From a virus (Duplodnaviria; Caudoviricetes), in the IMG/VR virus record IMGVR_UViG_3300042889_002114, positions 1 to 58,296 of that record: a DNA stretch of 58,296 nucleotides. One strand, given 5' to 3'. Under the pieces are notes generated by a model, which was not told where the DNA came from, did not search any database, and saw only the letters and a list, made by a program, of their open reading frames with translations. The position numbers and the translations under genes were made by a program. Below, in pieces: positions 44,399 through 57,598 of the stretch. The stretch's first letter is position 1, and the number at the start of each line of letters is the position of its first letter.

Positions 44399-44465
44399 GG
44401 TGTCTCCTAGGGTTCAGGATATTTATCCAGAATAGGTAGAGTGGTAGATTTAGATAAATAGGAAC

Positions 44466-45053
44466 ATGAAACGAGTGTTCCTAAAAGACTTTGACTGGGT
44501 TGGGATTCAATCAGCATACGATTCAGGAATATCATGGCAAGGAATCATCGAGAAATTCAAGACGACTCCCACTAGCTTGAACAAAGCTGCGAAGCTTGGA
44601 TTGTTCAAAACTAGATCACAGAAGGAAGGTTCTGTGAGAGCGGCCGCCAGCCGTCCCAAACAAGTTCACACCGATGAATTCTGTCAGGCACAATCCCGTC
44701 GAGCCAAAGAACGTGGGTTGGGTGGTCAACGGAACAGTCACAAGATAGAATACAAGGGTGTGGTTTTAGATTCATCTTACGAGCTAGAGATGGCACAGAA
44801 TCTAGATGCTGCGGGTGTAAAATGGTCTCGCCCTGGCCGCTTCAAATGGATTGATGATTCGGGTGTGGATCACCATTATACGCCGGATTTCTACCTTCCC
44901 CATTATAATGTGTATCTCGATCCCAAACACAAGGGTTTGATTCCTCTCCACGCTAGGAAAATTGAATTGGTCCAGGAGCAGAATGACATAAGAGTTCTGG
45001 TTCTTACAAAAGAACAGTTGACGTGGGCTGCCGTACTCAGTTACGTTGGATAA
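44466..45053 (+). CDS. free-standing PD-(D/E)XK (TnsA_N-like) putative homing endonuclease
   Basis: SSYE...W.RP...YTPDFYLP...YLDPK; N-terminal HTH-like module. Confidence 0.8.
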   Translation: MKRVFLKDFDWVGIQSAYDSGISWQGIIEKFKTTPTSLNKAAKLGLFKTRSQKEGSVRAAASRPKQVHTDEFCQAQSRRAKERGLGGQRNSHKIEYKGVVLDSSYELEMAQNLDAAGVKWSRPGRFKWIDDSGVDHHYTPDFYLPHYNVYLDPKHKGLIPLHARKIELVQEQNDIRVLVLTKEQLTWAAVLSYVG

Positions 45054-45066
45054 ATAGGAACACACC

Positions 45067-45141
45067 GGGGACTTAGTGATAACGGTAGCACGCCAGATTT
45101 GCATTCTGGATGTAGGGGTTCGATTCCCCTAGTCTCCACCA
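45067..45141 (+). tRNA. tRNA-Ala(TGC)
   Basis: G3:U70; CCAGA-TTTGCAT-TCTGG; CCA. Confidence 0.92.
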
Positions 45142-45179
45142 ATACTGGATGTCATCGGTTCGAATCCGTTATTCTCCAC
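45142..45179 (+). pseudogene. 3' half remnant of a tRNA (Ala-like)
   Basis: CTGG-ATGTC-ATCGGTTCGAATCCG-TTATTCTCCAC with no 5' half attached. Confidence 0.7.
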
Positions 45180-45237
45180 TTAGGTTCCACGCCAAGAGAT
45201 GCGTCTCTTGGCCCACTCCTGCTTTCGGGCGGAGATA

Positions 45238-45267
45238 GATAGCCCGGCGTGGCCACGCCGGGCTATC
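45238..45267. terminator. perfect 30-bp palindrome
   Basis: GATAGCCCGGCGTGGCCACGCCGGGCTATC. Confidence 0.6.
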
Positions 45268-45501
45268 GCCATATAATGAGAGCCCTAGTGGTTTTCAAAG
45301 AATTCAGAAACATATTGCAACGCCACACACGGTAGTGCATTATGGATCAGTAGTCGGACGGAGACGCCCGGCGGACTTGGACGCAGAAAAGTTTCTGTAG
45401 AAAAGTTGAATTAAACGGTTGACGTATCATCCGTTTGGTATAAATAGAAATAACAGTCCAAGCCATTCCGGCGCGGACAACCTAAGGATTCGTAATCTAC
45501 T

Positions 45502-45681
45502 ATGTTCGACTCGTCCACCCTCTTTAGCAAAAAGCTCGCCGGTGCAAACCGTCGCGGCTGGTCGGCTGAGCGCGGCGGATGCGAACATAATGTGATTATG
45601 CCGTCCGCCTTGTATCAAAATCAGCCTACACAGCTGGTCAGCGATACAGGCACCCGGGGTTCTCCTGGAGGTTCTTGCTAA
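45502..45681 (+). CDS. candidate 59-aa leader peptide
   Basis: TATAAATA at 45439, AAGGA RBS; followed by a GC-rich hairpin. Confidence 0.45.
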   Translation: MFDSSTLFSKKLAGANRRGWSAERGGCEHNVIMPSALYQNQPTQLVSDTGTRGSPGGSC

Positions 45682-45717
45682 GAGGTAACTTTAAGCAAAA
45701 CACTTCTAGTAGTAAAC

Positions 45718-45749
45718 GCCCCGGGCACCGAAAGGTCCCGGGGCTTCTT
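45718..45749 (+). terminator. terminator-like hairpin (possible attenuator)
   Basis: GCCCCGGG-c-ACC-GAAA-GGT-CCCGGGGC-TTCTT. Confidence 0.6.
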
Positions 45750-45808
45750 GCATCTGGACCCGACGGTAACGGGGCAGAAAATAAAATGCGGAAAACTTAA
45801 AAAGTTAG

Positions 45809-45837
45809 TTGACAGTGTTTTAGAAGTATGCTAAAAT
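45809..45837 (+). promoter_or_regulatory. near-consensus sigma70 promoter for the tRNA array
   Basis: TTGACA-17nt-TAAAAT. Confidence 0.75.
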
Positions 45838-46098
45838 AGAATTCCGAAGGACTTAGGTCCCAAGGAGCAGTTGCTGGACTTAAACCAGCAGTGGTAAACG
45901 CGGAACGAGACTGCGGGATAGCCACTCAAAATAAACCCGAATGGGCGGTGCCGAGGATGAAACCCAGGTGATGGGGAGTAAAAATAGGTGGATGTATTGA
46001 ATCCACCGTGGGCAGTGAGAGGGAAACCTCTCGCAAGCGGATCCGTCTAAAGTGCTAGACAACATATTCCGCTTATCAATAAAAAAGGCCAAAGTTTT

Positions 46099-46176
46099 CA
46101 GCGTGTAGGGGAGTCTGGAGTCCCTGCCACCTCGGGAAGGTGGAGATCGCAGGTTCAAATCCTGCTACGCTGACCA
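46099..46176 (+). tRNA. tRNA-Pro(GGG)
   Basis: CCACC-TCGGGAA-GGTGG (C33); CCA. Confidence 0.88.
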
Positions 46177-46222
46177 AGATTTATATCCAGGCTGAGCGGC
46201 ACTCATAAGTCCTGGACGATAT

Positions 46223-46297
46223 GCTTCTGTAGCACAATGGCTAGTGCAACGAGCTGATAACTCGTAGATTCAGGTTCGATTCCTGGCAGAAGTACCA
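46223..46297 (+). tRNA. tRNA-Ile(GAT)
   Basis: ACGAG-CTGATAA-CTCGT; CCA. Confidence 0.93.
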
Positions 46298-46306
46298 ACA
46301 CAATAT

Positions 46307-46391
46307 GCGGTTGTGATGAAACTGGTAGACTTGCTGCACTCAGAATGCAGTGCCTTCGGGCGTGGTGGTTCGAATCCACTCAGCCGCACCA
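46307..46391 (+). tRNA. tRNA-Leu(CAG)
   Basis: CTGCA-CTCAGAA-TGCAG; variable arm; CCA. Confidence 0.93.
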
Positions 46392-46395
46392 ACAC

Positions 46396-46469
46396 GTGAT
46401 CATAGTTCAATTTCAGAGAACGCCGGCCCTGGGCTGGAAGTGCGGGGGAAGATCCCGCTGATTGCACCA
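46396..46469 (+). ncRNA. tRNA-like RNA with a truncated anticodon loop
   Basis: Acceptor GTGATCA/TGATTGC, ACCA end, 3-5 nt anticodon loop, atypical T loop. Confidence 0.6.
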
Positions 46470-46479
46470 ACTCTTTCAT

Positions 46480-46556
46480 TCCCATTGGTCCCTGTCGGTA
46501 GGGGAGCGACACTGTTAATGTCGATGTTGTAGGTTCGAGTCCTACATTGGGAGCCA
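46480..46556 (+). tRNA. tRNA-Asn(GTT)
   Basis: CGACA-CTGTTAA-TGTCG; GCCA. Confidence 0.9.
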
Positions 46557-46571
46557 ACATTCACCTTTTAT

Positions 46572-46647
46572 TCCTGTTTAGTCATCTTGGTGAGGGCGTC
46601 CGGCTGTTAACCGGAATAGGCTGGTTCGAACCCAGCAACAGGAGCCA
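46572..46647 (+). tRNA. tRNA-Asn(GTT)
   Basis: TCCGG-CTGTTAA-CCGGA; GCCA. Confidence 0.92.
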
Positions 46648-46654
46648 ACATTTA

Positions 46655-46690
46655 TGCGCGGTCGACAGGAGGTGGTTCCTGCCAGGTCTC
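46655..46690 (+). pseudogene. 5' half remnant of a tRNA (Met-like) ending in the anticodon loop
   Basis: TGCGCGG...GGTGGT...CAGGT-CTC followed by CGCTAAATA. Confidence 0.65.
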
Positions 46691-46704
46691 CGCTAAATAC
46701 TGGT

Positions 46705-47259
46705 ATGCGATATACCATTTACAAAATCACGAATTTGCTCAACGGTAAGTTCTATATCGGGAAGCACCAAACCTCTAATCCACTTGATGGATATTTTGGT
46801 TCGGGGCGGGCACTGAAGAGTGCCATCAAGCTTCACGGTAAAGAGAACTTCACCAAAGAGATACTCTTCGAGTTTGACTCAGAAGAGGAAATGAATGCCA
46901 AGGAGCGCGATCTCATTACCCTAGAGTTGGTTAATGATCCAGCATCCTATAACATGGCAGTTGGTGGTGAAGGTGGTCCTCACTTCAAAGGGCGACAACA
47001 TTCATCGGAAACCAAAGAACGAATTAGCCAGAGCTTAACAGGAAAGCAAGCCGCCTCGGTGTCCGAAGAGACCCGAGCAAAGCTTTCGGAGAAGAGCAAG
47101 GGTAACAAAAGTAAAACTGGTCAACAGACCTCGGAAGAGGTTAAGGCTAAGATAGCCAAGTCAATGACCGGTAAGAAACACAGTGAAGAAACCAAACAGA
47201 AGCTGCGAGAAGCTCGTTTGAGAACACTGGACAAGTCGCGGGTAGGACAAGACAGTTAG
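46705..47259 (+). CDS. GIY-YIG homing endonuclease (Seg-like, NUMOD3 repeats)
   Basis: TIYKITN..NGKFYIG...YFGSG...YN...GG; HS.ETK repeats; probable start at 46705. Confidence 0.9.
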   Translation: MRYTIYKITNLLNGKFYIGKHQTSNPLDGYFGSGRALKSAIKLHGKENFTKEILFEFDSEEEMNAKERDLITLELVNDPASYNMAVGGEGGPHFKGRQHSSETKERISQSLTGKQAASVSEETRAKLSEKSKGNKSKTGQQTSEEVKAKIAKSMTGKKHSEETKQKLREARLRTLDKSRVGQDS

Positions 47260-47314
47260 TCGCCAGCCTCATAAGCTGGATATCTGGTAGTTGCGAGCAC
47301 TACACCCGCTCCCA
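47237..47314 (+). tRNA. tRNA-Met(CAT), overlapping the endonuclease stop
   Basis: CCAGC-CTCATAA-GCTGG; 1:72 mismatch; atypical T loop; CCA. Confidence 0.82.
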
Positions 47315-47344
47315 TTCCAAGCTGGAGATGACAACCAGCTTTAT

Positions 47345-47419
47345 ACCACTGTACGCATCTGGTGAGGCGACTCCCCTGTCACGGGAATGAGGCGGGTTCG
47401 ATTCCCGTCAGTGGTGCCA
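47345..47419 (+). tRNA. tRNA-Asp(GTC)
   Basis: TCCC-CTGTCAC-GGGA; GCCA. Confidence 0.88.
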
Positions 47420-47427
47420 ACTTCTCT

Positions 47428-47504
47428 GCCCGTATCGTTCTTCTGGAGAGGTCACCTGCTCGACACGCAGGGTTAGGTGAGTTCGATTCTCACTGCGGGC
47501 ACCA
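47428..47504 (+). tRNA. tRNA-Val(GAC)
   Basis: CCTGC-TCGACAC-GCAGG (C33); ACCA. Confidence 0.85.
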
Positions 47505-47517
47505 ACAAGTCATTCAT

Positions 47518-47591
47518 GGCTCGCGCGATGGAGTCGCGGCTGATCCTTACAAGATCGGCGTCACAGGGTTCGATTCCCTGACGGGCTACCA
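47518..47591 (+). tRNA. tRNA-Val(TAC)
   Basis: TGATC-CTTACAA-GATCG; ACCA. Confidence 0.85.
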
Positions 47592-47597
47592 AATACT

Positions 47598-47672
47598 GGA
47601 CTGGGGTCCCCATGGTGGGGAAGCACACTCTTAATGTGCCCGTCGAGGGTTCGATCCCCTCCTAGTCCTCCA
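47598..47672 (+). tRNA. tRNA-Lys(CTT)
   Basis: GCACA-CTCTTAA-TGTGC; CCA. Confidence 0.87.
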
Positions 47673-47679
47673 ACATCAC

Positions 47680-47756
47680 GGACCTGTAGCACAATTGGTA
47701 GTTGCGGGGGCCTCTTAAGCCCTAGGTTGTCGGTTCGACCCCGACCAGGTTCACCA
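47680..47756 (+). tRNA. tRNA-Lys(CTT)
   Basis: GGGGC-CTCTTAA-GCCCT; ACCA. Confidence 0.9.
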
Positions 47757-47782
47757 AAGACCTAGCTCTGCTAGGCACTAAC

Positions 47783-47865
47783 GGGAAGGTAAAGCCGATG
47801 GTTTCGGCAGGCAGTCTGTAAAACTGCTCTTTCGGGGAGTGGATCGTAACCGCACCTTCCCACCA
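47783..47865 (+). tRNA. tRNA-Tyr(GTA)
   Basis: GCAGT-CTGTAAA-ACTGC; variable arm; ATCGTAA T loop. Confidence 0.85.
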
Positions 47866-47869
47866 ATAT

Positions 47870-47952
47870 GCACCAGTAACCGAGAGTCATATGGGTATGG
47901 CGGGAGGCTTTTAATCTCCTGGTAGGGGGATCGTAACCTCACTGGTGTGCCA
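47870..47952 (+). tRNA. tRNA-Lys(TTT), atypical D and T arms
   Basis: GGAGG-CTTTTAA-TCTCC; GCCA. Confidence 0.75.
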
Positions 47953-47964
47953 ATAAAATCAAAT

Positions 47965-48035
47965 GGCTAGGGTACTGGGTACGCGAGACTCTCATAAGGT
48001 CTTGTTGCCGGGATCGTAACCCGGACTAGCCTCCA
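47965..48035 (+). tRNA. tRNA with CAT anticodon (Met or Ile2)
   Basis: AGACT-CTCATAA-GGTCT; short D arm; CCA. Confidence 0.75.
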
Positions 48036-48039
48036 ACAT

Positions 48040-48116
48040 GCCCGCGTGACGTAACTGGTAAACGTGTCACGCTTAGACCGTGAATTCTGGAGGTTCGAAT
48101 CCTCTCGCGGGCACCA
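48040..48116 (+). tRNA. tRNA-Leu(TAG), short variable arm
   Basis: TCACG-CTTAGAC-CGTGA; ACCA. Confidence 0.88.
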
Positions 48117-48123
48117 AAGCTGA

Positions 48124-48156
48124 TGGAGATTAGTGTAGCTGGTAACATACCGCACT
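48124..48156 (+). pseudogene. 5' half remnant of tRNA-Gln ending at U33
   Basis: TGGAGATTAGTGTAGCTGGTAACATACCGCACT; closely resembles the 5' half of the tRNA at 48773. Confidence 0.85.
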
Positions 48157-48165
48157 AAATACAGT

Positions 48166-48768
48166 ATGATCATACAGCTCAAAAACAAATCATTGGTCCT
48201 TGAAGACCTGCAGAAATACTATGATGAAGGTCATAGTGTTGCGGCAACTGCCAAAGAGTTTGGTATTTCAAGTAGAACATTGATGAGGTTAAAAGCTAGT
48301 CACGGGTTTGTAACCAGGGACAAGTCAGCTGCATTGGTAGTATCCAATGCAAAGTATCCTAGAACCTTCAGCGAAGCTCAACGTGGTGTGCTTAGAACTC
48401 ACATGGAACGTCGGCTTGCTAATGGAACATATCCAACTCTTGGTAGGTCAAATCGGAAGATCGGGAAGCCATCATATCCGGAGACCTTCTTCAAGGAAGT
48501 GATCGAAAACGAGTTTACAGACAAACGCTACGAGGCGGAACATCCATTTGGATCCTTCTCCTTAGATTTTGCCTGGTTGCACTTGAAGAAGTGCATTGAG
48601 ATTGACGGTGAACAACATTTTGCTTCGCAAGAAGCGATTGATCGTGACTGTCGAAAAGATGCTTTCCTCGCCACAAACGGCTGGAAAGTATTTAGAATAC
48701 GGTGGAAGGATTTCTACAAAGATCCAAAGCCGCTCATCCTTCTTGTGAAGCAATTCATAGAAGAATGA
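48166..48768 (+). CDS. DUF559/Vsr-like putative homing endonuclease
   Basis: SYPE...FSLDFA...IEIDGEQH...D..KD.FL...GWKVFRI; N-terminal HTH-like module. Confidence 0.85.
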   Translation: MIIQLKNKSLVLEDLQKYYDEGHSVAATAKEFGISSRTLMRLKASHGFVTRDKSAALVVSNAKYPRTFSEAQRGVLRTHMERRLANGTYPTLGRSNRKIGKPSYPETFFKEVIENEFTDKRYEAEHPFGSFSLDFAWLHLKKCIEIDGEQHFASQEAIDRDCRKDAFLATNGWKVFRIRWKDFYKDPKPLILLVKQFIEE

Positions 48769-48772
48769 TTAT

Positions 48773-48847
48773 TGGAGATTGGTGTAAACGGTAACATCGA
48801 CGCCTCTGAAGCGTTTGTCCTAGGTTCGAACCCTAGATCTCCAGCCA
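48773..48847 (+). tRNA. tRNA-Gln(CTG)
   Basis: GACGC-CTCTGAA-GCGTT; U1:A72; GCCA. Confidence 0.93.
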
Positions 48848-48860
48848 ACTAGTCATTCAT

Positions 48861-48934
48861 TGGGGAATGGTGTAAAGGTAGCATAACTGACTTTGAATCA
48901 GTTGGATCACGTTCGATACGTGGTTCCCCAGCCA
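48861..48934 (+). tRNA. tRNA-Gln(TTG)
   Basis: ACTGA-CTTTGAA-TCAGT; GCCA. Confidence 0.92.
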
Positions 48935-49013
48935 ATAGGCCTTAGAGGATTTAGGGGATTAGGCACCCCACACCGGGATCACGAAAGTGACCGCATCTAC
49001 GGTTCCTCACTAT

Positions 49014-49085
49014 GCTGTTGTGGGGTGGCTCTCACGCTTGGTTGTGTCCCAGGTGGTTTCGGTTCGACTCCGAACAACAGTACCA
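49014..49085 (+). tRNA. tRNA-His(GTG), no G-1, G1:U72, A73
   Basis: CTTGG-TTGTGTC-CCAGG; short D arm; ACCA. Confidence 0.75.
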
Positions 49086-49092
49086 ATATCAT

Positions 49093-49125
49093 GCGTCTAT
49101 AGCTCAATGGTAGAGCCACTGCCTT
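49093..49125 (+). pseudogene. 5' half remnant of tRNA-Gly
   Basis: GCGTCTATAGCTCAATGGTAGAGCCACTGCCTT. Confidence 0.85.
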
Positions 49126-49142
49126 GGTCAACTAAATAGAGT

Positions 49143-49712
49143 ATGATCAAGAAGATATTTAATTGGCCCGAGATCCAAGCTTTTTACGATACTGGTAACA
49201 GTAGCGGAAAAACTGCCAAGCAATTTGGAATGTCAGGTAAAACTTTGTTCCTCGCGGCAAAACGTGGTGATTTTGTTACTCGATCCAGAAGTGAGGCGGC
49301 GACGGTTGGTTCAACAACCCGTCCACCTCATTCTCAGGTCACCAAAGACAAGTTGAGTAAGATTGCTTCCGACAGAGAATTTGGTGGCAAGAACTACCGT
49401 AAAACTTTCCCCTACAAGGGCGTTGTGTTGGAGAGCTCATACGAGCTTGCACTTGCACAAGAACTTGATGGTGAGGGTATTGCTTGGGTGCGTCCCAAGC
49501 GTTTCTACTGGACTGATGACACTGGTAGGCGTAGACACTACACACCAGACTTCTTCCTTCCAGACTACGGGATTTATCTAGATCCCAAAAACGACTACCT
49601 GATCAAGATAGATAGTGATAAGATCAACCGAGTGATGTTACAAAATGACATACGGGTGTTGGTGTTGTCTAAGAGTCAACTGTCCTGGTCATACATTGCA
49701 TCTGTAGTATAG
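49143..49712 (+). CDS. free-standing PD-(D/E)XK (TnsA_N-like) putative homing endonuclease
   Basis: ESSYE...WVRP...YTPDFFLP...YLDPKN; paralogue of the ORF at 44466. Confidence 0.82.
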   Translation: MIKKIFNWPEIQAFYDTGNSSGKTAKQFGMSGKTLFLAAKRGDFVTRSRSEAATVGSTTRPPHSQVTKDKLSKIASDREFGGKNYRKTFPYKGVVLESSYELALAQELDGEGIAWVRPKRFYWTDDTGRRRHYTPDFFLPDYGIYLDPKNDYLIKIDSDKINRVMLQNDIRVLVLSKSQLSWSYIASVV

Positions 49713-49772
49713 TGGCTATTATGTTTGGCTTCCAACCAGAAGATGTGGGTTCGATTCCCACCAGATGCTCCA
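49698..49772 (+). tRNA. tRNA-Gly(TCC), overlapping the endonuclease stop
   Basis: TTTGG-CTTCCAA-CCAGA; TCCA. Confidence 0.92.
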
Positions 49773-49812
49773 AGGAATGGCTAGCAGGGTTCGATCCTCT
49801 CTAGACGCTCCA
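49773..49812 (+). pseudogene. 3' half remnant of tRNA-Gly
   Basis: T loop GGTTCGATCC; TAGACGC-TCCA complementary to GCGTCTA at 49093. Confidence 0.85.
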
Positions 49813-49819
49813 ACTTTAT

Positions 49820-49895
49820 CCTGGCAAAGTCTTTGCGGTGGAGGCGCTGGTTTGTGGAGCCGGATGGCTAGGTTCGAATCCTAGTGCCAGGACCA
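49820..49895 (+). tRNA. tRNA-His(GTG), A73
   Basis: CTGGT-TTGTGGA-GCCGG; ACCA. Confidence 0.85.
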
Positions 49896-49902
49896 AGTTT
49901 AT

Positions 49903-49976
49903 GCGAATATAGCTCAAGGGTAGAGCAGAGCGTTGCCAACGCTCCGATAGGGGTTCGAATCCCCTTATTCGCTCCA
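49903..49976 (+). tRNA. tRNA-Gly(GCC)
   Basis: GAGCG-TTGCCAA-CGCTC; TCCA. Confidence 0.93.
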
Positions 49977-49983
49977 ACACAAT

Positions 49984-50059
49984 GCGGCATTAGTATATTG
50001 GTTGATTGCATCACCTTGCCATGGTGAGAAGATGGGTTCGATTCCCATATGCCGCTCCA
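49984..50059 (+). tRNA. tRNA-Gly(GCC)
   Basis: TCACC-TTGCCAT-GGTGA; TCCA. Confidence 0.9.
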
Positions 50060-50221
50060 AAGACGTTGTACGAAGCAGGGCTGCAAACCCTGAGCGAGAG
50101 GCCTTTAATGCGCGGGACAGTCTATCCCGAGAACTGTGAACAGCTTCACGGCGGGGGCCAAGAACCCCTAGTAGCATAGGAGAGGCGGAGTGGGGTGTGG
50201 ATACCCATTGCAAAGGAATAT

Positions 50222-50297
50222 GTGTAGTTGGTGAAGCTGGAGCTCACATTGGCTTGAAACCCCAAAGAACTAGGTTCGATCCCTAGACTACACACCA
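50222..50297 (+). tRNA. tRNA-Phe(GAA)
   Basis: TTGGC-TTGAAAC-CCCAA (one mismatch); ACCA. Confidence 0.82.
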
Positions 50298-50506
50298 AGT
50301 TCTCCTAGGAGGACGGAGCCTACTTACGCCCTAGGCTCGTAAAATATGGAGACGTTCTGCACTGTGGAGCGTTGGGACCTCGCAGCGCCGGGCGGCCAGT
50401 TCGTAAGGAACAAGTAGCTCATTACCTGGAAGGGGCAGGTTACCGATTATAATGGTTGCGCGTTTCTAGTTGGCAACATAGAGTGCTTTTTTAACAGGAG
50501 CACCAC

Positions 50507-50827: not shown

Positions 50828-50839
50828 TCCCCTGCCTAT

Positions 50840-51071: not shown

Positions 51072-51072
51072 T

Positions 51073-51410: not shown

Positions 51411-51415
51411 ACCAT

Positions 51416-51490: not shown

Positions 51491-51494
51491 ACAT

Positions 51495-51568
51495 GCTTCT
51501 GCCGGCGGATTCCGGCATTTGGACTTCTAATCCGAAATGCGAGGGTTCGACTCCTTCCAGAAGCGCCA
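51495..51568 (+). tRNA. tRNA-Arg(TCT)
   Basis: TTGGA-CTTCTAA-TCCGA; GCCA. Confidence 0.87.
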
Positions 51569-51606
51569 AGCATTTCATATGCCTCTGATGATGGATTTCA
51601 TACCCC

Positions 51607-51679
51607 GACCTTGCCAACGGATTTTGGCCCCGACGCTTCGAACGTCAGGTATCGAGTTCGACTCTCGACAGGGTCTCCA
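51607..51679 (+). tRNA. tRNA-Arg(TCG)
   Basis: GACG-CTTCGAA-CGTC; TCCA. Confidence 0.82.
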
Positions 51680-51687
51680 ACCATATT

Positions 51688-51759
51688 GTCTCCGCTAGTG
51701 GATCTAGTCTGTTCCCTGCGAAGGAAGAGAAGCCTGTTCGACTCAGGCCGGAGACGCCA
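51688..51759 (+). tRNA. tRNA-Arg(GCG)
   Basis: TTCC-CTGCGAA-GGAA; GCCA. Confidence 0.8.
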
Positions 51760-51766
51760 ATTAAAT

Positions 51767-51840
51767 ACCCGCGCCGAGGGATTGCGGCACAGGCCCTGCG
51801 AAGGCTTGATGTTCAGGTTCGACTCCTGACGTGGGTGCCA
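51767..51840 (+). tRNA. tRNA-Arg(GCG), overlapping the antisense endonuclease stop
   Basis: AGGCC-CTGCGAA-GGCTT; GCCA. Confidence 0.85.
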
Positions 51841-52448
51841 ACTGCATCAAAGATTTCTTGAGGAGTACCGTAGATTAGGTCAACTGATCCTACGAGTGCA
51901 TCAAGTTTCTCTTGTTGTTTTTCAACTACGATCCTGTTCTTAGGATCAAGGTAGAGATTGAATTCTGGTAGATAGAAATCTGCAAAGTATTTGTGTGGTT
52001 TGCCTTTTTGGTCATACCAAACGATTGCATCAGTGGGTCGAAGCCAACTTATGGAATGCTCATTGAGCCACTTAGCAACAATGACTTCCCATCCTGAATC
52101 AAACATCTCTCCCTCGTATTCTTGTTTCTTGACACCTGATGCGTTCTTACGCTTTGACGAAATAAAGCATTGGTCAGAACATAGAAGACCATACCATCCA
52201 CTGTCAGTTCGTTGACTCCAGAATTGATTAGAGCAAAACGAACAGTTGGATCGTTTTATTTTGGTGTGTTGATACTTGGTGGGTTGTTTCCGAATAAAGG
52301 ATCTACCCTTCAAAGATTCAGAAGTTTTTGATTTGCTACTAATGGTTCTAGGTGCTCTGTTTGTATTATTGAATACAGCGGCGCATGAACAAGAACAGAA
52401 TTTGTTCTTGTTGGGAATTGGTTTGGCACAAGTGATACAGTATTTCAT
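51813..52448 (-). CDS. PD-(D/E)XK putative homing endonuclease with N-terminal zinc-finger motifs
   Basis: CxxC...FCS..C twice; DSGWE...WLRP...YFADFYLP...YLDPKN; TAAATA on the minus strand before ATG. Confidence 0.82.
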   Translation of the reverse strand: MKYCITCAKPIPNKNKFCSCSCAAVFNNTNRAPRTISSKSKTSESLKGRSFIRKQPTKYQHTKIKRSNCSFCSNQFWSQRTDSGWYGLLCSDQCFISSKRKNASGVKKQEYEGEMFDSGWEVIVAKWLNEHSISWLRPTDAIVWYDQKGKPHKYFADFYLPEFNLYLDPKNRIVVEKQQEKLDALVGSVDLIYGTPQEIFDAVGTHVRSRT

Positions 52449-52458
52449 GTTGTATTTA

Positions 52459-52498
52459 GCGAAACCGAAAATCTAGGTTCGATCCCTAGTGGAACCGC
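52459..52498 (+). pseudogene. 3' half remnant of tRNA-Arg(GCG) starting at the anticodon
   Basis: GCG-AA-ACCGA-AAAT-CTAGGTTCGATCCCTAG-TGGAAC. Confidence 0.8.
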
Positions 52499-52748
52499 TT
52501 AATCGGAGACACCCACAGGCCCTAGGGCTCGTGACGTGAGCTTGGCGCTAGAGGGCTTACCGCGTGTAGCGGATGAGTCCGGAGTGGGAGTGTGGAAACC
52601 CACCGATTGAAGATACTCCTTGTAAATGACCCTTCCTAGTCCGGTTGCAAACGGACGACGTGGGAGGCAGTTTAGATGAGCGGACTTGCGGCGTTTGGAG
52701 CCGAGGTAGTCTAGGAGCCGGGTGAGGAAACCGGCCTTGGAGCATAAT

Positions 52749-52823
52749 GGGCTGTTAGTGATAACGGTAGCACGGGACAATGGCATTGTCTTAGCAGGGG
52801 TTCGATTCCCCTACAGTCCACCA
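52749..52823 (+). tRNA. tRNA-Ala(GGC)
   Basis: G3:U70; GGACA-ATGGCAT-TGTCT; ACCA. Confidence 0.92.
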
Positions 52824-52836
52824 ACTGATATTCTTT

Positions 52837-52910
52837 GGCCCATTAGTTTAATGGTAGAATACCGCCCTCTCACGGCGTCAGCAGGGGTTCGATTCCCCTA
52901 TGGGTCACCA
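52837..52910 (+). tRNA. tRNA-Glu(CTC)
   Basis: CGCC-CTCTCAC-GGCG; ACCA. Confidence 0.9.
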
Positions 52911-53020
52911 ACTACTACCTCACGGAGGTGGTGCTTTAGAGACGCTCCCGCTTTGTTTGGAGCCAGGGAAACCTGTGGCGGTCTCGGAGGGGAATGTGGA
53001 CCTCCCCAGTAGTTGAATAT

Positions 53021-53096
53021 GGCGCATTAGTTTATAGGGTGAAAATACTGGGCTTTCAATCCGGAGTGGTGGGTTCGATCCCCACATGCGTCGCCA
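53021..53096 (+). tRNA. tRNA-Glu(TTC)
   Basis: CTGGG-CTTTCAA-TCCGG; GCCA. Confidence 0.9.
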
Positions 53097-53189
53097 AACT
53101 TGTTGACACTCTGGAGACAGGGTGTTACATTGATTCTACCAACTAGTCCCTCCCTGTAGCTGTTTCTAGCAACAGAAGGAGATAAGACG

Positions 53190-53450
53190 ATGAAGGTATA
53201 TGTGGTTCTGCACAATAACTGGCAACACTACGAAGGTGGTGGAGCGGAGATTGTTTCGATTCATGCTTCCACGAACTGAGCGTTGGCGGAAGTCAAAGCT
53301 CAGTTCGTGGAACTGAATAAAAATCGCTACTCGTATCAACCCGAGTATGTGATGGTGGATCGTGAAAACGAGTCCGATTGTTGGTACTACCAGGAAACTG
53401 GTGGGGCTGACTATTGGTACTCCATCGAGGAACACAAGATTGAGGACTAG
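53190..53450 (+). pseudogene. small phage protein gene with an in-frame TGA at codon 30
   Basis: TTGACA promoter, AAGGAG RBS; MKVYVV...IVSIHASTN*ALAEVK...YSIEEHKIED. Confidence 0.65.
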
Positions 53451-53653
53451 GAAACTGGTCCTCCGATCTAATACTCTGGTATGCAGTAACCAAAGCATAC
53501 TCCCGCCACACGGGAAACGTGGCCCTGCATGACTCCGGCAATCGGTAGTGGAGGAATTTCATCCCCTTGATGCAAAGGGGGTCGGCACGGGTATGATGGC
53601 ACTCTACGTTAGTGAGCCCATTAGTCGGGTGGGGATGGTACCCCACCCGCTTT

Positions 53654-53731
53654 TCCTAGCTAGTCATCTTGGTGATGGCGCTCCGCTGTTAACGGAGATT
53701 GAGCTCAGTTCGAATCTGAGGCTAGGAGCCA
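53654..53731 (+). tRNA. tRNA-Asn(GTT)
   Basis: CTCCG-CTGTTAA-CGGAG; GCCA. Confidence 0.92.
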
Positions 53732-53773
53732 ATAATATAGACGCCATCGAAGCAGTAATGCTTTACTCTGGAA

Positions 53774-54196
53774 ATGAACTTTCGAGGCGTCAAGGATTCA
53801 ACCTTTGTTTGTGGGTTTTGTGAGAAGTCTTTCTCTTGGAGAGGCTACTCCACCTCCCACAAGTTTTGTTCTACAGACTGTGCTCACTCTAACAGGGTGA
53901 AGATGACTAGAGAACGAGACGACGCGCTCTTCGATACTGGCCAGTTAACAAGTCGGCCATCAATCTACCAAATACTTGTTACCCGTCGTGGTAACAAGTG
54001 TGAGAGTTGTAATATTCAAGACTGGATGGGCAAAGCAATCCGATTTTGGGTCGACCACATTGATGGGTGTGCAACCAATAATGATCCATCAAACTTGAGA
54101 TTGGTCTGTCCCAACTGTGATAGTCAATCTGCCACATTCGGTGGTAAAAATAGAGGTAGTGGCCGTAAGTCCCTAGGGCTTGCGCCATACAGTTAA
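53774..54196 (+). CDS. HNH homing endonuclease
   Basis: CxxC..., CESC...VDHIDG...NN...NLRLVCPNC. Confidence 0.85.
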   Translation: MNFRGVKDSTFVCGFCEKSFSWRGYSTSHKFCSTDCAHSNRVKMTRERDDALFDTGQLTSRPSIYQILVTRRGNKCESCNIQDWMGKAIRFWVDHIDGCATNNDPSNLRLVCPNCDSQSATFGGKNRGSGRKSLGLAPYS

Positions 54197-54201
54197 ACAA
54201 T

Positions 54202-54277
54202 CCCCTCGGACCCAGCTGGTGACGGGAGCCGCTTGTCAGGCGGATGCGGGCGAGTTCAATTCTCGTCGAGGGGGCCA
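54202..54277 (+). tRNA. tRNA-Asp(GTC)
   Basis: CCGC-TTGTCAG-GCGG; GCCA. Confidence 0.87.
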
Positions 54278-54403
54278 ACTTAGAGCCGATTGATTCGGGT
54301 TATCTTTCTGTGAAAAAGCGATGGAGGGTTCGATTCCCTTGCCGGGGCTCACGCCTTGGTCCTTGGATGGCTGGCAACGTCCGGTTCTCCACTTGCTCTA
54401 AGT
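54278..54403 (+). ncRNA. Y RNA (YrlA-like) with a permuted tRNA-like domain
   Basis: ACTTAGAGC-CGA..GGGTTAT..T arm GAGGGTTCGATTCCCTT..CCACTT-GCTCTAAGT. Confidence 0.78.
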
Positions 54404-54407
54404 CTTT

Positions 54408-54488
54408 AGTTCTGTAGCTCAGTGGCCAGAGCATTCCTGTGTATCGCTACGCTGGGAAGGGCCAGAGGTTCGAATCCTCTCAGAACTG
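54408..54488 (+). ncRNA. tRNA-like RNA with an elongated anticodon arm
   Basis: Canonical acceptor, D and T arms; anticodon arm TTCCTGTGTA-TCGC-TACGCTGGGAA; no CCA. Confidence 0.7.
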
Positions 54489-54490
54489 CT

Positions 54491-54635
54491 AAACGGGCCG
54501 ATTTGTAAGGGTTATTGCATATGAAGCCGATGGCGGGAGTTCGATTCTCCCACCCCCGACCAACACGTTAGACCTCCGGGGGTTAGTTTAATGGTAGAAC
54601 AGCGAAAAACGTCCTTGCTACCACTTGCCCGTTTT
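54491..54635 (+). ncRNA. Y RNA (YrlA-like) with a permuted tRNA-like domain
   Basis: AAACGGGC-CGA..GGGTTAT..T arm, loop-closed acceptor ACCCCCG/CGGGGGT, D arm, then CCACTT-GCCCGTTT. Confidence 0.85.
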
Positions 54636-54638
54636 ATT

Positions 54639-54728
54639 GGATAGTAGACCAGGTGGGACCTGGCGGCGCCTGGAAAGCGTCTGGAGCCCTTTACCGGGCT
54701 TGTGGATCGAGACCACTGCTGTCCGCCA
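54639..54728 (+). tRNA. tRNA-Ser(GGA)
   Basis: GGCGC-CTGGAAA-GCGTC; long variable arm; GCCA. Confidence 0.88.
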
Positions 54729-54734
54729 ACTCAT

Positions 54735-54825
54735 GGAGAGTTAAGCAGAGCGGCCTCTGCACCTGCCTCGAAAACAGTGTGTGCCCGTAGAACGGCATGG
54801 GAATCGACATCTCAGCTCTCCGCCA
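54735..54825 (+). tRNA. tRNA-Ser(CGA)
   Basis: CTCGAAA loop with an imperfect stem; long variable arm; GCCA. Confidence 0.78.
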
Positions 54826-54831
54826 ATAAAT

Positions 54832-54936
54832 GGGCCAGAACCCTGTGGACTTAGATCCACTTACCGTGAAAGTCGGTGGAGGTATGGAGACGGGAGTAGC
54901 TCTCCCATGCGGGTTCAAATCCCCACTGGTCCACTA
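54832..54936 (+). ncRNA. atypical tRNA-like RNA
   Basis: Acceptor GGGCCAG/CTGGTCC, T loop TTCAAAT, three internal hairpins, no standard anticodon loop. Confidence 0.55.
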
Positions 54937-54942
54937 AACCTT

Positions 54943-55029
54943 GGATGGTTAAACGGGGAGGTCCCCGTACCTGTTTGCTAAACAGTGGGTGCCGAAAGGC
55001 ATGGGTTTCGAGTACTCAGCCATCCGCCA
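54943..55029 (+). tRNA. tRNA-Ser(GCT)
   Basis: CTGT-TTGCTAA-ACAG; long variable arm; GCCA. Confidence 0.85.
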
Positions 55030-55139
55030 ACGTACGAGCCGACCGAGAACGAAACCATCGTCCGGAACCTCGGTCTAATCCCGGTCAACCCTAGCAAGCT
55101 ACTAGGGCGAAGGGGGTGCTCGTACGCCCAATACATCAT

Positions 55140-55213
55140 CAGGGTGTAAGATAGTGGTAGTCGCGAACCCTCGGACGGTGCGAGTGCTGGTTCGATTCCA
55201 GCTACCCTGACCA
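55140..55213 (+). tRNA. tRNA-Pro(CGG)
   Basis: CTCGGAC loop; C1:G72; ACCA. Confidence 0.85.
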
Positions 55214-55240
55214 CTGACTAAGTATCGAACTAAATAGAGT

Positions 55241-55897
55241 ATGTTCTACTTGGTCTATAAAATCACCAACACGGTGAATGGTAAAATCTACATCGGCGCC
55301 CATAAGACTGCTGATGTAAATGACAACTATATGGGATCTGGTTCCATCTTGAAGATGGCCCAAGAGAAATATGGCACGTCAAACTTCACCAAAGAGATTC
55401 TGTTTGTCTTCAGCTCACCAGAAGAGATGTTCCTTATGGAAGCTCAACTGGTCAATGAAGACTTTGTATCTAGAGCAGATACCTACAACCTAAAAGAGGG
55501 TGGTACCGGTGGCTTTGGCTTCATTCACCAACACAATCTACACCTTAATGGGGTTCCCAACTTCACAAAGGACAATGCCAAGGCGTTAAGCATCAAAGGT
55601 AACGGGAGGAAGGAAATCCTCCATGCTACTGATCCAGAGTGGAGGCAGAGATACTTGGACAGAATGTCCAAGTCCATGCGCGGCCATCAAGGTTTCCTGG
55701 GTAAGACCCATAGTGCTGAGACACTAGAAAAGATGCGGCAGGCTAAAACTGCTCATGGTTTAGGAAAGAACAATTCGCAATTCGGCTCCTTCTGGATCTA
55801 TAATGAGACTACTGGAGAATCCTGTAAAACCAAGGGTGATATCCCGGAAGGTTGGATTCGTGGTCGAAAGATAGGAACCCGAAGAAATGATCTTTGA
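55241..55897 (+). CDS. GIY-YIG homing endonuclease (Seg-like)
   Basis: LVYKITNTVNGKIYIG...YMGSG...YNLKEGG; NUMOD3-like GKTHSAET. Confidence 0.9.
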   Translation: MFYLVYKITNTVNGKIYIGAHKTADVNDNYMGSGSILKMAQEKYGTSNFTKEILFVFSSPEEMFLMEAQLVNEDFVSRADTYNLKEGGTGGFGFIHQHNLHLNGVPNFTKDNAKALSIKGNGRKEILHATDPEWRQRYLDRMSKSMRGHQGFLGKTHSAETLEKMRQAKTAHGLGKNNSQFGSFWIYNETTGESCKTKGDIPEGWIRGRKIGTRRNDL

Positions 55898-56147
55898 AAA
55901 AGTTGAAGTCACAGAACATCAGTTTAGCACAATCAAAAATGACTATGATTTGAAAATCATGTTCAGAAGTGGTGGATGGCCATCAGATGATGAACAATAT
56001 CTTGGCATGATTGAGCTCAGACTAGATTGTGGCAATAGCCTACTCACCGATTCAGTCAATGACTGCCTTAGATTGACTAAAGAAGATGCCATCCTTCAAC
56101 TTCGAAGGGCAGCTGATTTTCTAGAATCAGAACTAAACGGGGAGTGA
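55887..56147 (+). CDS. hypothetical protein
   Basis: 86-aa ORF overlapping the endonuclease stop. Confidence 0.55.
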   Translation: MIFEKVEVTEHQFSTIKNDYDLKIMFRSGGWPSDDEQYLGMIELRLDCGNSLLTDSVNDCLRLTKEDAILQLRRAADFLESELNGE

Positions 56148-56157
56148 TCCCCACAAT

Positions 56158-56232
56158 GGGCCCTTAGTGGTAATGGTAAAACGACGCTTTCGCACGGCGT
56201 AGATAAGGGTTCGATTCCCTTAGGGTCCACCA
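56158..56232 (+). tRNA. tRNA-Ala(CGC)
   Basis: G3:U70; ACGCT-TTCGCAC-GGCGT; ACCA. Confidence 0.9.
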
Positions 56233-56282
56233 ATATAATCAGCTCATCGGGGTAGGATCAGCTGGGTAAGACAACCTATCAT

Positions 56283-56357
56283 CAGGGTAGGATCGGCAAG
56301 TGAAGAGGTCACGCTTGGAACGTGGCAGGCCAGGAGCGTTACCTGGTACCCTGACCA
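56283..56357 (+). tRNA. tRNA-Pro(TGG), atypical T loop
   Basis: TCACG-CTTGGAA-CGTGG; ACCA. Confidence 0.8.
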
Positions 56358-56596
56358 ACATATTGACTAGTAGTTCTGTTCACTATAAGATGTGTTTAGT
56401 TCTCGGACTTAAACCGAGTGGCGAGGATGAGAAATCATTCCCGACGTTCTTGGACGTAAACCAAGTGGTGGAGCGCCTTGAATCTTGGTTCACGGCTCCA
56501 GTCCTGGCAGGGGACTTTAACTCTGCCCACAATACGGCGGGATCAAGGCGGCAGTCTCATGGGGTGACCCTGTAGCAACGGCCTCCCGTGCGTTAT

Positions 56597-56671
56597 AGGG
56601 GTGTAGTAAAGTGGCCTATACACCGGTCTCCAAAACCGAGCATGGGGGTTCGATTCCCTCCACCCTTGCCA
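56597..56671 (+). tRNA. tRNA-Trp(CCA)
   Basis: CGGT-CTCCAAA-ACCG; GCCA. Confidence 0.9.
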
Positions 56672-56789
56672 AATAGATCTTACGAAGGCCTGGGGTGTGG
56701 TTGAAAGATGGGCCCCTTGGACTCGAGACTTCGTGAGTAAAGGTGTAGCTGCCCTCGACACAACTAAAGGCGCACCAATAATTTCCCAT

Positions 56790-56880
56790 AGGGGTGGGAC
56801 TGGCGATCGGATTCCAAACCCGATGACGTTTAACCTAAGCCAGTGGTAGTCTACGGGTTCAATTCCTGCCACCCTTGCCA
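56790..56880 (+). tRNA. atypical tRNA-Trp(CCA): no D hairpin, ~29-nt variable region
   Basis: Same acceptor stem as the tRNA at 56597; TTCCAAA loop; GCCA. Confidence 0.65.
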
Positions 56881-56887
56881 ACTCAAT

Positions 56888-56921
56888 GGTCCTATAGCTT
56901 AATGGCAGAGCCCTCCGCTTG
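56888..56921 (+). pseudogene. 5' half remnant of a tRNA (Ile-like) ending at G34
   Basis: GGTCCTATAGCTTAATGGCAGAGCCCTCCGCTTG followed by CTAAATA. Confidence 0.82.
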
Positions 56922-56932
56922 CTAAATACGGC

Positions 56933-57574
56933 ATGAACCGTAAACGTAAATATGACTACCAACAGATCCAAGAACTGTATGACAGTGGTTTTTCAATTAA
57001 GATTACCTGTAAAATTTCAGGTATGTCACCGGCTAGATTCAATGCTCTTGTAAAGCAAGGATTTCTTGTTACTAGGACACAATCAGAAGCCGCTATACTT
57101 ACTGGAGGATCAGGCTTTTGTTCTCCTGATTATGTGGGTTCTGAGAAACATAGACAGTCCTCGGCAAAGGGTGGTGGATATAAAGAGCGAGCGGGACGTT
57201 CCAAGGGTGCATTCCGTATAGACGGCTATGGTGTCAAAACCTGGCTACAATCAAGCTATGAGACGCAACTAGCAGATATCATGACGCAAAATGATATTCT
57301 ATGGTGTCGCCCCAAAGCACTCTCCTATAATGATGGAGATCGGGATAGGAAATACTATCCTGATTTCTTCCTTCCAGACTATGATTTGTATCTGGATACG
57401 AAGAACGACTACTTGGCTAAAGTGGACGCGGGTAAGATTGAACTGGTTCGAAACCAACATGGTATTCAACTGTTCATCATCACGCAGAAGCAAATCACAC
57501 TGGAGTATCTCCAGTCATTATGGTCTCATCGTACAATGGCTCAGTACGCTCGGCTGATAACCGGGAAATCGTAG
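56933..57574 (+). CDS. free-standing PD-(D/E)XK (TnsA_N-like) putative homing endonuclease
   Basis: QSSYE...WCRP...YYPDFFLP...YLDTKN; N-terminal HTH-like module. Confidence 0.82.
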   Translation: MNRKRKYDYQQIQELYDSGFSIKITCKISGMSPARFNALVKQGFLVTRTQSEAAILTGGSGFCSPDYVGSEKHRQSSAKGGGYKERAGRSKGAFRIDGYGVKTWLQSSYETQLADIMTQNDILWCRPKALSYNDGDRDRKYYPDFFLPDYDLYLDTKNDYLAKVDAGKIELVRNQHGIQLFIITQKQITLEYLQSLWSHRTMAQYARLITGKS

Positions 57575-57598
57575 GTTCAATTCCTCGTGGGACTACCA
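57522..57598 (+). tRNA. tRNA-Ile(GAT), largely inside the 3' end of the endonuclease ORF
   Basis: CTCGG-CTGATAA-CCGGG; ACCA. Confidence 0.88.

Follow-up and report, generated by a model that had tools for sequence, protein, structure and literature searches.

Free-standing homing endonuclease genes adjoin tRNA genes broken in the anticodon loop and intact tRNAs of the same type in a phage tRNA array

Nuclease genes within phage transfer RNA (tRNA) clusters, a preference of the encoded enzyme for tRNA genes, and a nuclease stop codon at the next tRNA are all known for SegB (PMC2330249, PMC13096335, PMC8421152, PMC2988022). SegB targets tRNA genes and spreads together with flanking tRNA genes, and the co-localization of SegB with tRNAs is widespread (PMC2330249, PMC13096335). 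Here we analyze a related arrangement in a stretch of 58,296 bases from a virus of the Caudoviricetes (IMG/VR record IMGVR_UViG_3300042889_002114; the whole stretch is referred to below as the window), which is a single, huge-phage-like contig. Within its tRNA array, six free-standing homing endonuclease genes (HEGs) adjoin a tRNA fragment whose break lies in the anticodon loop, and each of them ends at or within an intact tRNA that is of the same type but divergent. As in T4 segB, these are free-standing HEGs in a phage tRNA cluster, two HEGs of the window encode SegB-like GIY-YIG enzymes, and the next tRNA begins where the HEG stop codon lies. SegB, however, recognizes the T-psi-C motif that is conserved across many tRNA genes, and it sits between intact genes, whereas most HEGs of the window type have another fold, belong to isotype-specific lineages, and show a junction in the anticodon loop (also seen in the related loci L100 and L123), a broken resident gene, and an adjoining same-type replacement tRNA.

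Several other systems resemble single features of this arrangement. The target and insertion site of the cyanobacterial enzyme I-Ssp6803I is the anticodon region of tRNA-fMet genes, and its gene lies within the tRNA-fMet intron. It is thus intron-encoded, with splicing restoring the tRNA, whereas the HEGs of the window have no intron. In both cases a PD-(D/E)XK nuclease is used for homing (PMC3384342). A profile search of the PDB revealed no sequence relation to I-Ssp6803I and returned only T7 endonuclease I chains (E 0.09–0.43), with which the E, D, (D/E)xK order of the PD-(D/E)XK HEGs aligns. The similarity to T7 endonuclease I thus comprises an alignable E ... PD ... (D/E)xK motif and weak, marginal PF05367 matches; unlike the HEGs of the window, the T7 enzyme resolves junctions and has no N-terminal helix-turn-helix or zinc-finger module. 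MobE in the nrdA gene of Aeh1, and mobA with the gene 60 bypass element, are HEGs that split or rescue the gene that they invade. These cases share with the window a free-standing HEG in a useful gene whose function is kept by means other than an intron; they differ in that the protein is kept working as pieces or by translational bypass, whereas the window supplies a whole substitute gene and abandons the old one. Mitochondrial mobile open reading frames (ORFs), such as that in Allomyces atp6, bring a replacement end of the invaded gene. There too an endonuclease ORF brings along part of its target gene in a foreign version, and the displaced resident part is left as a pseudogene fragment; unlike the tRNA genes of phages considered here, that case involves protein-coding genes, in-frame fusions, and organelles. 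Both MobE and mobA are listed in PMC2988022. For other cargo, it has been proposed that a useful gene paired with a homing endonuclease offsets the cost of the latter (PMC12619734). In the literature searched, subscription papers and supplements aside, no description was found of a half tRNA followed by a free-standing nuclease and a same-type tRNA, nor of type-specific lineages of tRNA-associated nucleases.

The tRNA content of the window was determined with ARAGORN, which identified 39 tRNA genes, 36 of them within positions 45067–58261, and six additional ones when its threshold was lowered. Searches against Pfam and PHROGs resulted in eight free-standing nuclease ORFs within the 14-kb tRNA array. 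Four are PD-(D/E)XK, T7-endonuclease-I-like paralogs (44466–45053, 49143–49712, 56933–57574, and, on the minus strand, 51813–52448), two are SegB-like proteins with GIY-YIG and NUMOD3 domains (46705–47259 and 55241–55897), one is a DUF559 protein (48166–48768), and one belongs to the HNH family (53774–54196). The GIY-YIG, HNH, and DUF559 families were recognized by Pfam and the PD-(D/E)XK family by its catalytic columns: across an alignment of 20 sequences, E101, D136, and K149 do not vary and D147 hardly varies. PHROGs labels for this last family read resolvase, endonuclease, or unknown and never homing endonuclease, and NCBIfam holds no model for it. The GC content of the nuclease ORFs is 0.41–0.46, compared with 0.52 in the first 44 kb of the window.

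In each of the six loci, the motif TAAATA-N4-5-ATG stands at the junction between the tRNA fragment and the HEG. The window contains 12 occurrences of TAAATA-N3-6-ATG, where 0.98 are expected and none of 100 shuffles reached 12; seven of the 12 are HEG starts, namely those of the six loci and of the GIY-YIG gene at 55241. An nhmmer profile built from the tRNAs of the window was good for 3' fragments and poor for 5' halves, and it was replaced by local alignment against 646 tRNAs with a reverse-complement null. For the 5' remnant score, the 55 bases upstream of each junction were aligned to the first 42 bases of 685 tRNAs, with a null of at most 10.5 for the five scored loci (Gln, Gly, Ile, Ala, and Met). 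The layout that the initial annotation had proposed for six loci was recovered at all of them, with one change of rank: Gln, Gly, Ile, and Arg are clear, and Met, which had been counted as clear, proved to be weak like Ala. Both weaker loci nevertheless gain 3' remnants (Ala, 45142; Met, 47319), which, like that of Gly (49773), directly follow the CCA of the candidate cargo and start with tRNA position 37. As had also been proposed, the HEG stop codon lies within the intact tRNA at four loci (Met, Gly, Ile, and, antisense, Arg), as judged from the ARAGORN and ORF coordinates.

The most complete example is the Gly locus (here and below, features are on the plus strand unless stated otherwise). 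Its 5' remnant (49093–49132; score 24.5, null 10.5) is followed by TAAATA at 49133–49138 and by a PD-(D/E)XK HEG of a Gly(tcc) clade (49143–49712; assigned from the ORF, catalytic columns, and PHROGs), which shares 51% identity with the Gly(tcc)-linked HEG in the related locus L003. The HEG ends inside the intact tRNA-Gly(tcc) (49698–49772; ARAGORN, 66.8 bits in Rfam), the sole tcc copy in the window, and directly behind it nhmmer detected a 3' remnant (49773–49812) that comprises variable loop, T arm, acceptor strand, and TCCA and is identical to the 3' end of the candidate cargo at 22 of 27 positions. The acceptor strands of the two Gly halves pair at 7/7 positions; such pairing arose somewhere in 249 of 5000 shuffled 60-base stretches, yet the Gly 7-mer lies right after the T arm and before TCCA. 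At the Ile locus, a 5' remnant whose top matches are Ile tRNAs (56888–56922; score 18, null 9.5) precedes TAAATA at 56923–56928 and a PD-(D/E)XK HEG (56933–57574) of a six-member clade (support 99) in which a tRNA-Ile stands behind every member; this ORF overlaps the intact tRNA-Ile(gat) (57522–57598; ARAGORN) by 53 nt. A stretch at 57620–57643, for which nhmmer gave no match, may tentatively be read by eye as a degenerate 3' remnant of the broken Ile gene, as its acceptor strand pairs 6/7 with the 5' remnant.

At the Gln locus, the 5' remnant (48124–48155; score 15) is identical to the candidate cargo at 21 of 25 positions (84%), and this cargo ranks first among the 685 tRNAs. Behind TAAATA (48156–48161) lies a DUF559/Vsr-like endonuclease gene with an N-terminal helix-turn-helix (48166–48768; PF04480 at 41.2 bits with a cut-off of 20.6, PF18741; its NCBIfam matches fall under their cut-offs), followed by the intact tRNA-Gln(ctg) (48773–48847; ARAGORN), the sole ctg copy in the window. 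At the Arg locus, a 3' remnant (52459–52498; nhmmer model positions 37–72, E=0.0027) keeps the anticodon GCG, the end of the loop, the T arm, and the acceptor strand, and it adjoins an inverted PD-(D/E)XK HEG with an N-terminal zinc-finger-like region (51813–52448, minus strand; Pfam and PHROGs; TAAATA at 52453–52458 on the minus strand). The 3' end of this HEG overlaps the intact tRNA-Arg(gcg) (51765–51840; ARAGORN) antisense by 28 nt. The Arg HEG falls in an Arg-associated clade with L063–L065 (support 98), and in L063 and L064 a tRNA-Arg(acg) lies 33 nt upstream. The anticodon match between remnant and cargo that had been reported is thin at Gly and Ile, where 0–1 anticodon base remains.

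The two weaker loci add detail of their own. At the Ala locus, a weak 5' remnant (44427–44454; score 11, null 9.5; acceptor pairing 5/7 with the 3' remnant) runs into the left copy (44450–44466, containing TAAATA at 44455–44460) of a 17-nt direct repeat whose right copy lies at 45046–45062. The copies are 16/17 identical at a spacing of 596 and bracket exactly the nuclease ORF, a PD-(D/E)XK (T7 endonuclease I-like) HEG of an Ala clade (44466–45053; weak PF05367 match, PHROG label resolvase/endonuclease, conserved catalytic E, D, and DxK columns) that is sister to the nuclease of L006 with support 96. The HEG stop codon falls in the right repeat copy, from which the intact tRNA-Ala is separated by 4 nt, or by 10 nt counted from TAAATA. 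This candidate cargo, tRNA-Ala(tgc) (45067–45141; ARAGORN, 61.5 bits in Rfam), is followed directly behind its CCA by the 3' remnant (45142–45179; nhmmer model positions 41–73), an 11-nt stretch of which is 10/11 identical to the 3' side of the cargo anticodon stem. At the Met locus, the 5' remnant (46657–46693; score 10, null 10) can be aligned, as far as the first anticodon base, with its counterparts in L100 and L123 and with an intact tRNA-Met, and the junction is conserved. It is followed by TAAATA (46694–46699) and by the SegB-like HEG (46705–47259; PF01541, PF19835, and PF07460 above cut-offs; phrog_314, E=4.9e-46), which ends inside a non-canonical tRNA-Met(cat), the candidate cargo (47237–47314). 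This tRNA was detected by ARAGORN at the 95% threshold only and is absent from Rfam matches at E<=1; the same odd tRNA-Met stands behind the HEG in L100 and L123. A short Met 3' remnant consisting of the anticodon-loop end and stem (47319–47344; an 11-nt stretch 10/11 identical to cargo positions 47273–47283) adds to what had been noted before.

The remaining two nuclease genes of the array do not share the full layout. The second GIY-YIG HEG (55241–55897; PF19835 and PF07460 above cut-offs, PF01541 below) begins with TAAATA-N4-ATG and has no tRNA remnant (score 9, null 15), and the HNH endonuclease gene (53774–54196; Pfam and PHROGs), between tRNA-Asn and tRNA-Asp, has neither remnant nor TAAATA.

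Insertion in the anticodon loop is the classic position of a tRNA intron, and the inserts might accordingly be introns or otherwise be removed at the RNA level, restoring the split tRNA. In favor of this, the insertion in the cultured phage Apostate, described below, is exact and scarless, and a PD-(D/E)XK homing endonuclease is known from cyanobacteria (PMC3384342). However, Rfam searches at permissive thresholds identified no group I intron or other intron family in the window (E<=1) or in the loci L090 and L091 (E<=0.1), and the HEG ORFs stand between or inside tRNA genes, outside any detected intron. The Apostate ORF fills ~630 of the ~666 inserted bases, leaving no room for a ribozyme core, an insert of the window would have to include a whole tRNA, and the Ala and Met remnants are degenerate. 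We consider removal at the RNA level very improbable, and the intron-free character of the arrangement, as originally put forward, is upheld.

Relatives were then collected from IMG/VR with an alignment of the four PD-(D/E)XK paralogs as query. The best 80 of 136 relatives resulted in 79 distinct loci, 68 of them unique. tRNA genes lie within 3 kb at 66 of the 68 unique loci, and in 28 of the 68 the HEG stop falls between -70 and +15 of the start of a same-strand tRNA, compared with 7.3 expected; in 19 it falls inside the tRNA. Loci without an intact tRNA in the 75 upstream bases were regarded as scorable (45 loci), and a half was called at a score of at least 14 (null maximum 13.5). A 5' tRNA half was present upstream of the HEG in 17 of the 45, its similarity to tRNA stopping at positions 18–38, and TAAATA was found at 10 of the 17 remnant loci as against 5/45 others. 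The amino-acid type of the best match of the half equaled that of the downstream tRNA in 7 of 10 cases, where 0.65 are expected from type frequencies and 2.5 is the permutation mean (P=0.0003); L003, a Gly-Gly case, was left out of this count as a duplicate of L002. Isotype concordance above chance, which had been predicted, was thus borne out. In some Arg and Gly loci, the nuclease is instead located just downstream of an intact cognate tRNA.

A tree of 65 PD-(D/E)XK proteins consists of isotype-specific clades, with 15 label changes compared with a minimum of 18 in 1000 shuffles. Among these are an Ile clade of six that includes the Ile nuclease of the window (support 99) and an Arg(tct) clade of 13 (support 100), and the Gly nuclease groups with the Gly(tcc)-linked nucleases of L002, L003, and L005. 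The four paralogs of the window fall in four different clades and therefore represent four separate lineages and not recent copies of one another.

It had been proposed that three nuclease folds use the one layout. For the GIY-YIG nuclease of the Met locus, 80 loci with relatives were collected, 48 of them unique; 43 of these have tRNAs nearby, and in nine a tRNA-Met(cat) comes next. The same layout was found in five of these relatives: L102, L110, and L130 have clear 5' halves and TATAAATA, and L100 and L123 have the odd tRNA-Met of the window and an identical break after the first anticodon base. For L110, an empty allele was sought by an exact 34-base search, which matched only six HEG-bearing contigs. 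The DUF559 nuclease has few relatives, and one of them, L096, has the order Lys(ttt)-HEG-Lys(ctt) with no remnant, so that the layout in this third fold is that of the window alone, whereas it is shared by relatives of the PD-(D/E)XK and GIY-YIG nucleases.

Details of individual relatives bear on how the intact tRNAs may have arisen and on what the nucleases may recognize. In L003, the 3' acceptor strand of the intact tRNA pairs 7/7 with the upstream remnant and 6/7 with its own 5' strand, which fits a hybrid gene such as would result from recombination within the tRNA; in L004, the halves on either side of the nuclease and its tRNA pair 7/7. Of 21 remnants, 15 have a canonical D-arm motif, compared with none of 15 adjacent intact tRNAs and 129 of 646 background tRNAs, which suggests that the D-arm could belong to the recognized site, although similarity-based detection of remnants favors canonical sequences and the difference in D-arm between cargo and background reaches only P=0.05.

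The placement of halves beside nuclease genes could also be an accident of a decaying tRNA array rich in fragments, and the array does hold many orphan tRNA fragments. A sliding scan of the array (826 windows) found just seven places that resemble 5' halves, however, and three of the seven end at HEG starts. The layout moreover recurs in unrelated contigs with isotype concordance, and empty alleles exist (see below), so that chance is scarcely credible as an explanation.

Having identified the layout in uncultured viruses, we turned to cultured phages, where the PD-(D/E)XK family has relatives in 54 records. Empty alleles with one intact tRNA, which had been named as a check on the proposal, were found in such homologous systems. 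In the Kuttervirus PhaxI, the first 27 bases of a tRNA-Met are followed by a nuclease gene that overlaps a divergent tRNA-Met by 10 bases; 62 more bases follow this new tRNA, after which Kuttervirus homology resumes at the last bases of the old one. The HEG-less relatives SJ3, LPEK22, and S117 have one intact canonical tRNA-Met at this place, with the 27 bases and both flanks identical to PhaxI, and the filled PhaxI query was covered to at least 80% by only 6 of 293 matching records. The Gly nuclease of the window is related to that of PhaxI (29% identity over 95 residues, BLASTP E=6e-11). In the Lazarusvirus Apostate, an HEG interrupts a tRNA(CAT) precisely behind its anticodon, and the HEG stop codon straddles the right junction; Konradin and others have this tRNA(CAT) intact. 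As a separate observation, a CUA-anticodon tRNA and a gene with an RF-1 domain are located beside the split tRNA(CAT) of this Acinetobacter phage (L091, 1342–2251).

Presence/absence polymorphism at one site was likewise seen for homologs in Menderavirus, making three genera with Kuttervirus and Lazarusvirus. Moby has no nuclease gene. Bhz51 has a PD-(D/E)XK gene in the 20-base spacer between tRNA-Ile and tRNA-His, and the former spacer supplies the final codons of this gene and its stop. In Mendera, an HNH gene overlaps tRNA-Arg; in Marzo, the Trp/Cys spacer holds a GIY-YIG gene beginning with TAAATA-N5-ATG. The gene of Bhz51, a Stenotrophomonas phage, between tRNA-Ile and tRNA-His (L085, 2283–2900) is unannotated in GenBank. 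For the suggestion that the overlap of stop codon and tRNA ties the cargo to the nuclease, the overlap is weak evidence, as it can stem from the insertion site itself, as in Bhz51, and is already known for T4 segB (PMC2330249). Mineola, a cultured match for the GIY-YIG nuclease, was rejected as a case of the layout, its arrangement being an ordinary SegB-like one. In the T4-like phage F25, a PD-(D/E)XK gene takes the place of segB between tRNA-Ile2 and tRNA-Arg, with boundaries as in T4, and in KIT01 these two tRNA genes are adjacent.

The case of F25 bears on where the tRNA genes were broken. A partial Arg(TCT)-like remnant lies upstream of its HEG although the tRNA-Arg and both boundaries are as in T4, so that a remnant can travel with the HEG. 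Units of remnant, HEG, and tRNA may thus have formed elsewhere and arrived whole through homologous exchange of array segments, with the halves as hitch-hikers. The Met junction, conserved among the window, L100, and L123 at 47–61% HEG identity, agrees with this, and at Gln, Ile, and Met there is no clear full 3' half, which leaves room for whole-unit arrival at these loci. The 3' halves beyond the cargo at Gly and Ala, and the 7/7 pairing at Gly, fit breakage of a gene at that very spot instead, and the PhaxI remnant is identical to the resident allele of its HEG-less relatives. Whole-unit arrival, which differs from insertion into a resident gene only in the place of the break, appears to us a real though rather unlikely origin of these units.

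A different route to partial tRNAs would be unequal recombination, triggered by the nuclease, between neighboring tRNA genes of the same type, producing partial duplicates by SegB-like amplification with no resident gene invaded. SegB breaks do drive the amplification of tRNA segments through homologous recombination, and the published amplification units contain truncated segB and not truncated tRNAs (PMC13096335). The array is rich in same-type tRNA pairs, and the Gln remnant, 84% identical to its neighbor, would suit such an origin. The Gly and Ile remnants, however, bear very little resemblance to the tRNA beside them, their own cargo ranking 503 and 314 of 685, respectively, and the PhaxI remnant corresponds to the allele of the HEG-less relatives and not to the new tRNA. 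Amplification of this kind is therefore judged improbable as the source of the halves.

The architecture itself, its recurrence in many phages, the isotype-specific HEG clades, and the empty and filled alleles in three groups of cultured phages are all observed. We estimate a probability of roughly three in four that the loci represent copies, some still current and others reduced to scars, of isotype-specific homing cassettes without introns, which invade tRNA genes and in many cases supply a replacement tRNA. Each cassette would consist of a free-standing HEG of a lineage tied to one tRNA type, whose nuclease would recognize the DNA of the canonical tRNA gene of that type and cut in or near its anticodon-loop part. 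Repair of the break would then copy the cassette into the cut tRNA gene, of which a 5' half and sometimes also a 3' half would remain, and reduction to halves would make the site no longer cuttable. In most cases the cassette would lie directly upstream of, or bring with it, a same-type tRNA that is intact but divergent and that would keep the decoding capacity and probably escape cleavage. The TAAATA-N4-5-ATG at the left cassette edge may serve as an expression signal of its own, since TAAATA presumably resembles the core of a T4-type late promoter. From the sequences, we infer recognition through the D-arm and anticodon stem, the site of the cut, and the resistance of the cargo.

Several observations weigh against the homing of such cassettes into resident tRNA genes. 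The majority of the scorable PD-(D/E)XK relatives (28 of 45) have no remnant, and many orphan tRNA fragments of the array have no HEG beside them. Among the loci of the window, the best matches of the Gly remnant are non-Gly tRNAs, with the low rank of its own cargo noted above, and the anticodon-stem strands of the Gly halves, read from the sequence, pair at only 3/5 positions; the Arg locus deviates in its inverted HEG, its lack of a 5' half, and an intact tRNA that is not in cargo orientation; and of the 5' halves, that of Met does not reach significance by itself and that of Ala is weak. In the cultured phages, Apostate has no replacement tRNA, the Menderavirus insertions are clean spacer insertions, and F25 shows that a remnant can travel with its HEG. 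The same-type tRNA that the initial proposal has the element carry is thus not obligatory, as Apostate illustrates. Finally, the insertion comparisons come from homologous systems: megablast against phages gave no match to the window, protein anchors in viral and metagenome contigs resulted only in 53%-identical loci (L001, L081, and L082) or in nothing, and these searches thus found no close relative of this phage. L001, with the order Trp-His-Ile-protein and no HEG, was considered as an empty allele for the window and rejected as too distant.

Other features of the window were recorded alongside. Its phage-type genes include members of the Lon-like ATPase/protease and glutathionylspermidine synthase families and a single ORF of 3381 amino acids that occupies positions 6344–16489. 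When one nuclease of the window was searched by tblastn against GenBank phages, only two huge uncultured phages, an Aeromonas jumbo phage, and a Stenotrophomonas phage were matched. At 45809–46098, a sigma-70-like promoter (11/12 matches, with a TG extension) precedes a strongly structured RNA of 261 nt (z = -3.7) that belongs to no Rfam family and lies just upstream of the tRNA array. Three tRNA-like genes with unusual T loops (Tyr gta, Lys-like, and Met cat) at 47783–48035 were found by ARAGORN at the lowered threshold only, and a higher-GC ORF of 106 amino acids (50507–50827) lies between two tRNA-Phe(gaa) genes (50222–51148). Outside the array, at 17062–17139, ARAGORN identified a tRNA with a four-base anticodon (ggaa) that could be frameshift-suppressor-like. 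Orphan tRNA fragments were located at 47565–47591, 50925–50962, 51040–51071, 51217–51240, 51633–51679, 54322–54339, 54505–54562, 54907–54933, and 56851–56880, with an orphan 5' half near 54578–54612; these may mark earlier invasions or sites from which nuclease genes have been lost.

On the usual view, free-standing homing endonucleases do no harm to their host genome because their genes lie between other genes, or within introns and inteins; here the element would enter a gene and compensate the damage with a substitute gene. More speculatively, and on present evidence somewhat doubtful, such elements could form a widespread class of composite mobile elements in which isotype-specific HEGs home into the anticodon loops of phage tRNA genes, carry a nuclease-resistant tRNA, and act as a main engine of tRNA-array turnover. 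If so, they would explain non-canonical D-arms, same-type duplicates, and pseudo-tRNA debris; the 5' halves may provide homology arms when such an element homes again, and the forced divergence of cargo tRNAs could also help these tRNAs escape host defenses that target tRNAs. The comparison also flags unannotated or mislabeled genes in public phage records ("endonuclease I", "hypothetical protein"), the cultured-phage homologs of the PD-(D/E)XK HEGs being annotated as endonuclease I. If the proposed enzymology holds, the cultured Kuttervirus, Lazarusvirus, and T4-like phages would provide testable pairs of sensitive and resistant targets, the layout would define a set of natural nucleases each directed at one type of tRNA gene, and a simple rule would account for phage tRNA arrays that are variable, filled with fragments, and rich in odd tRNAs.

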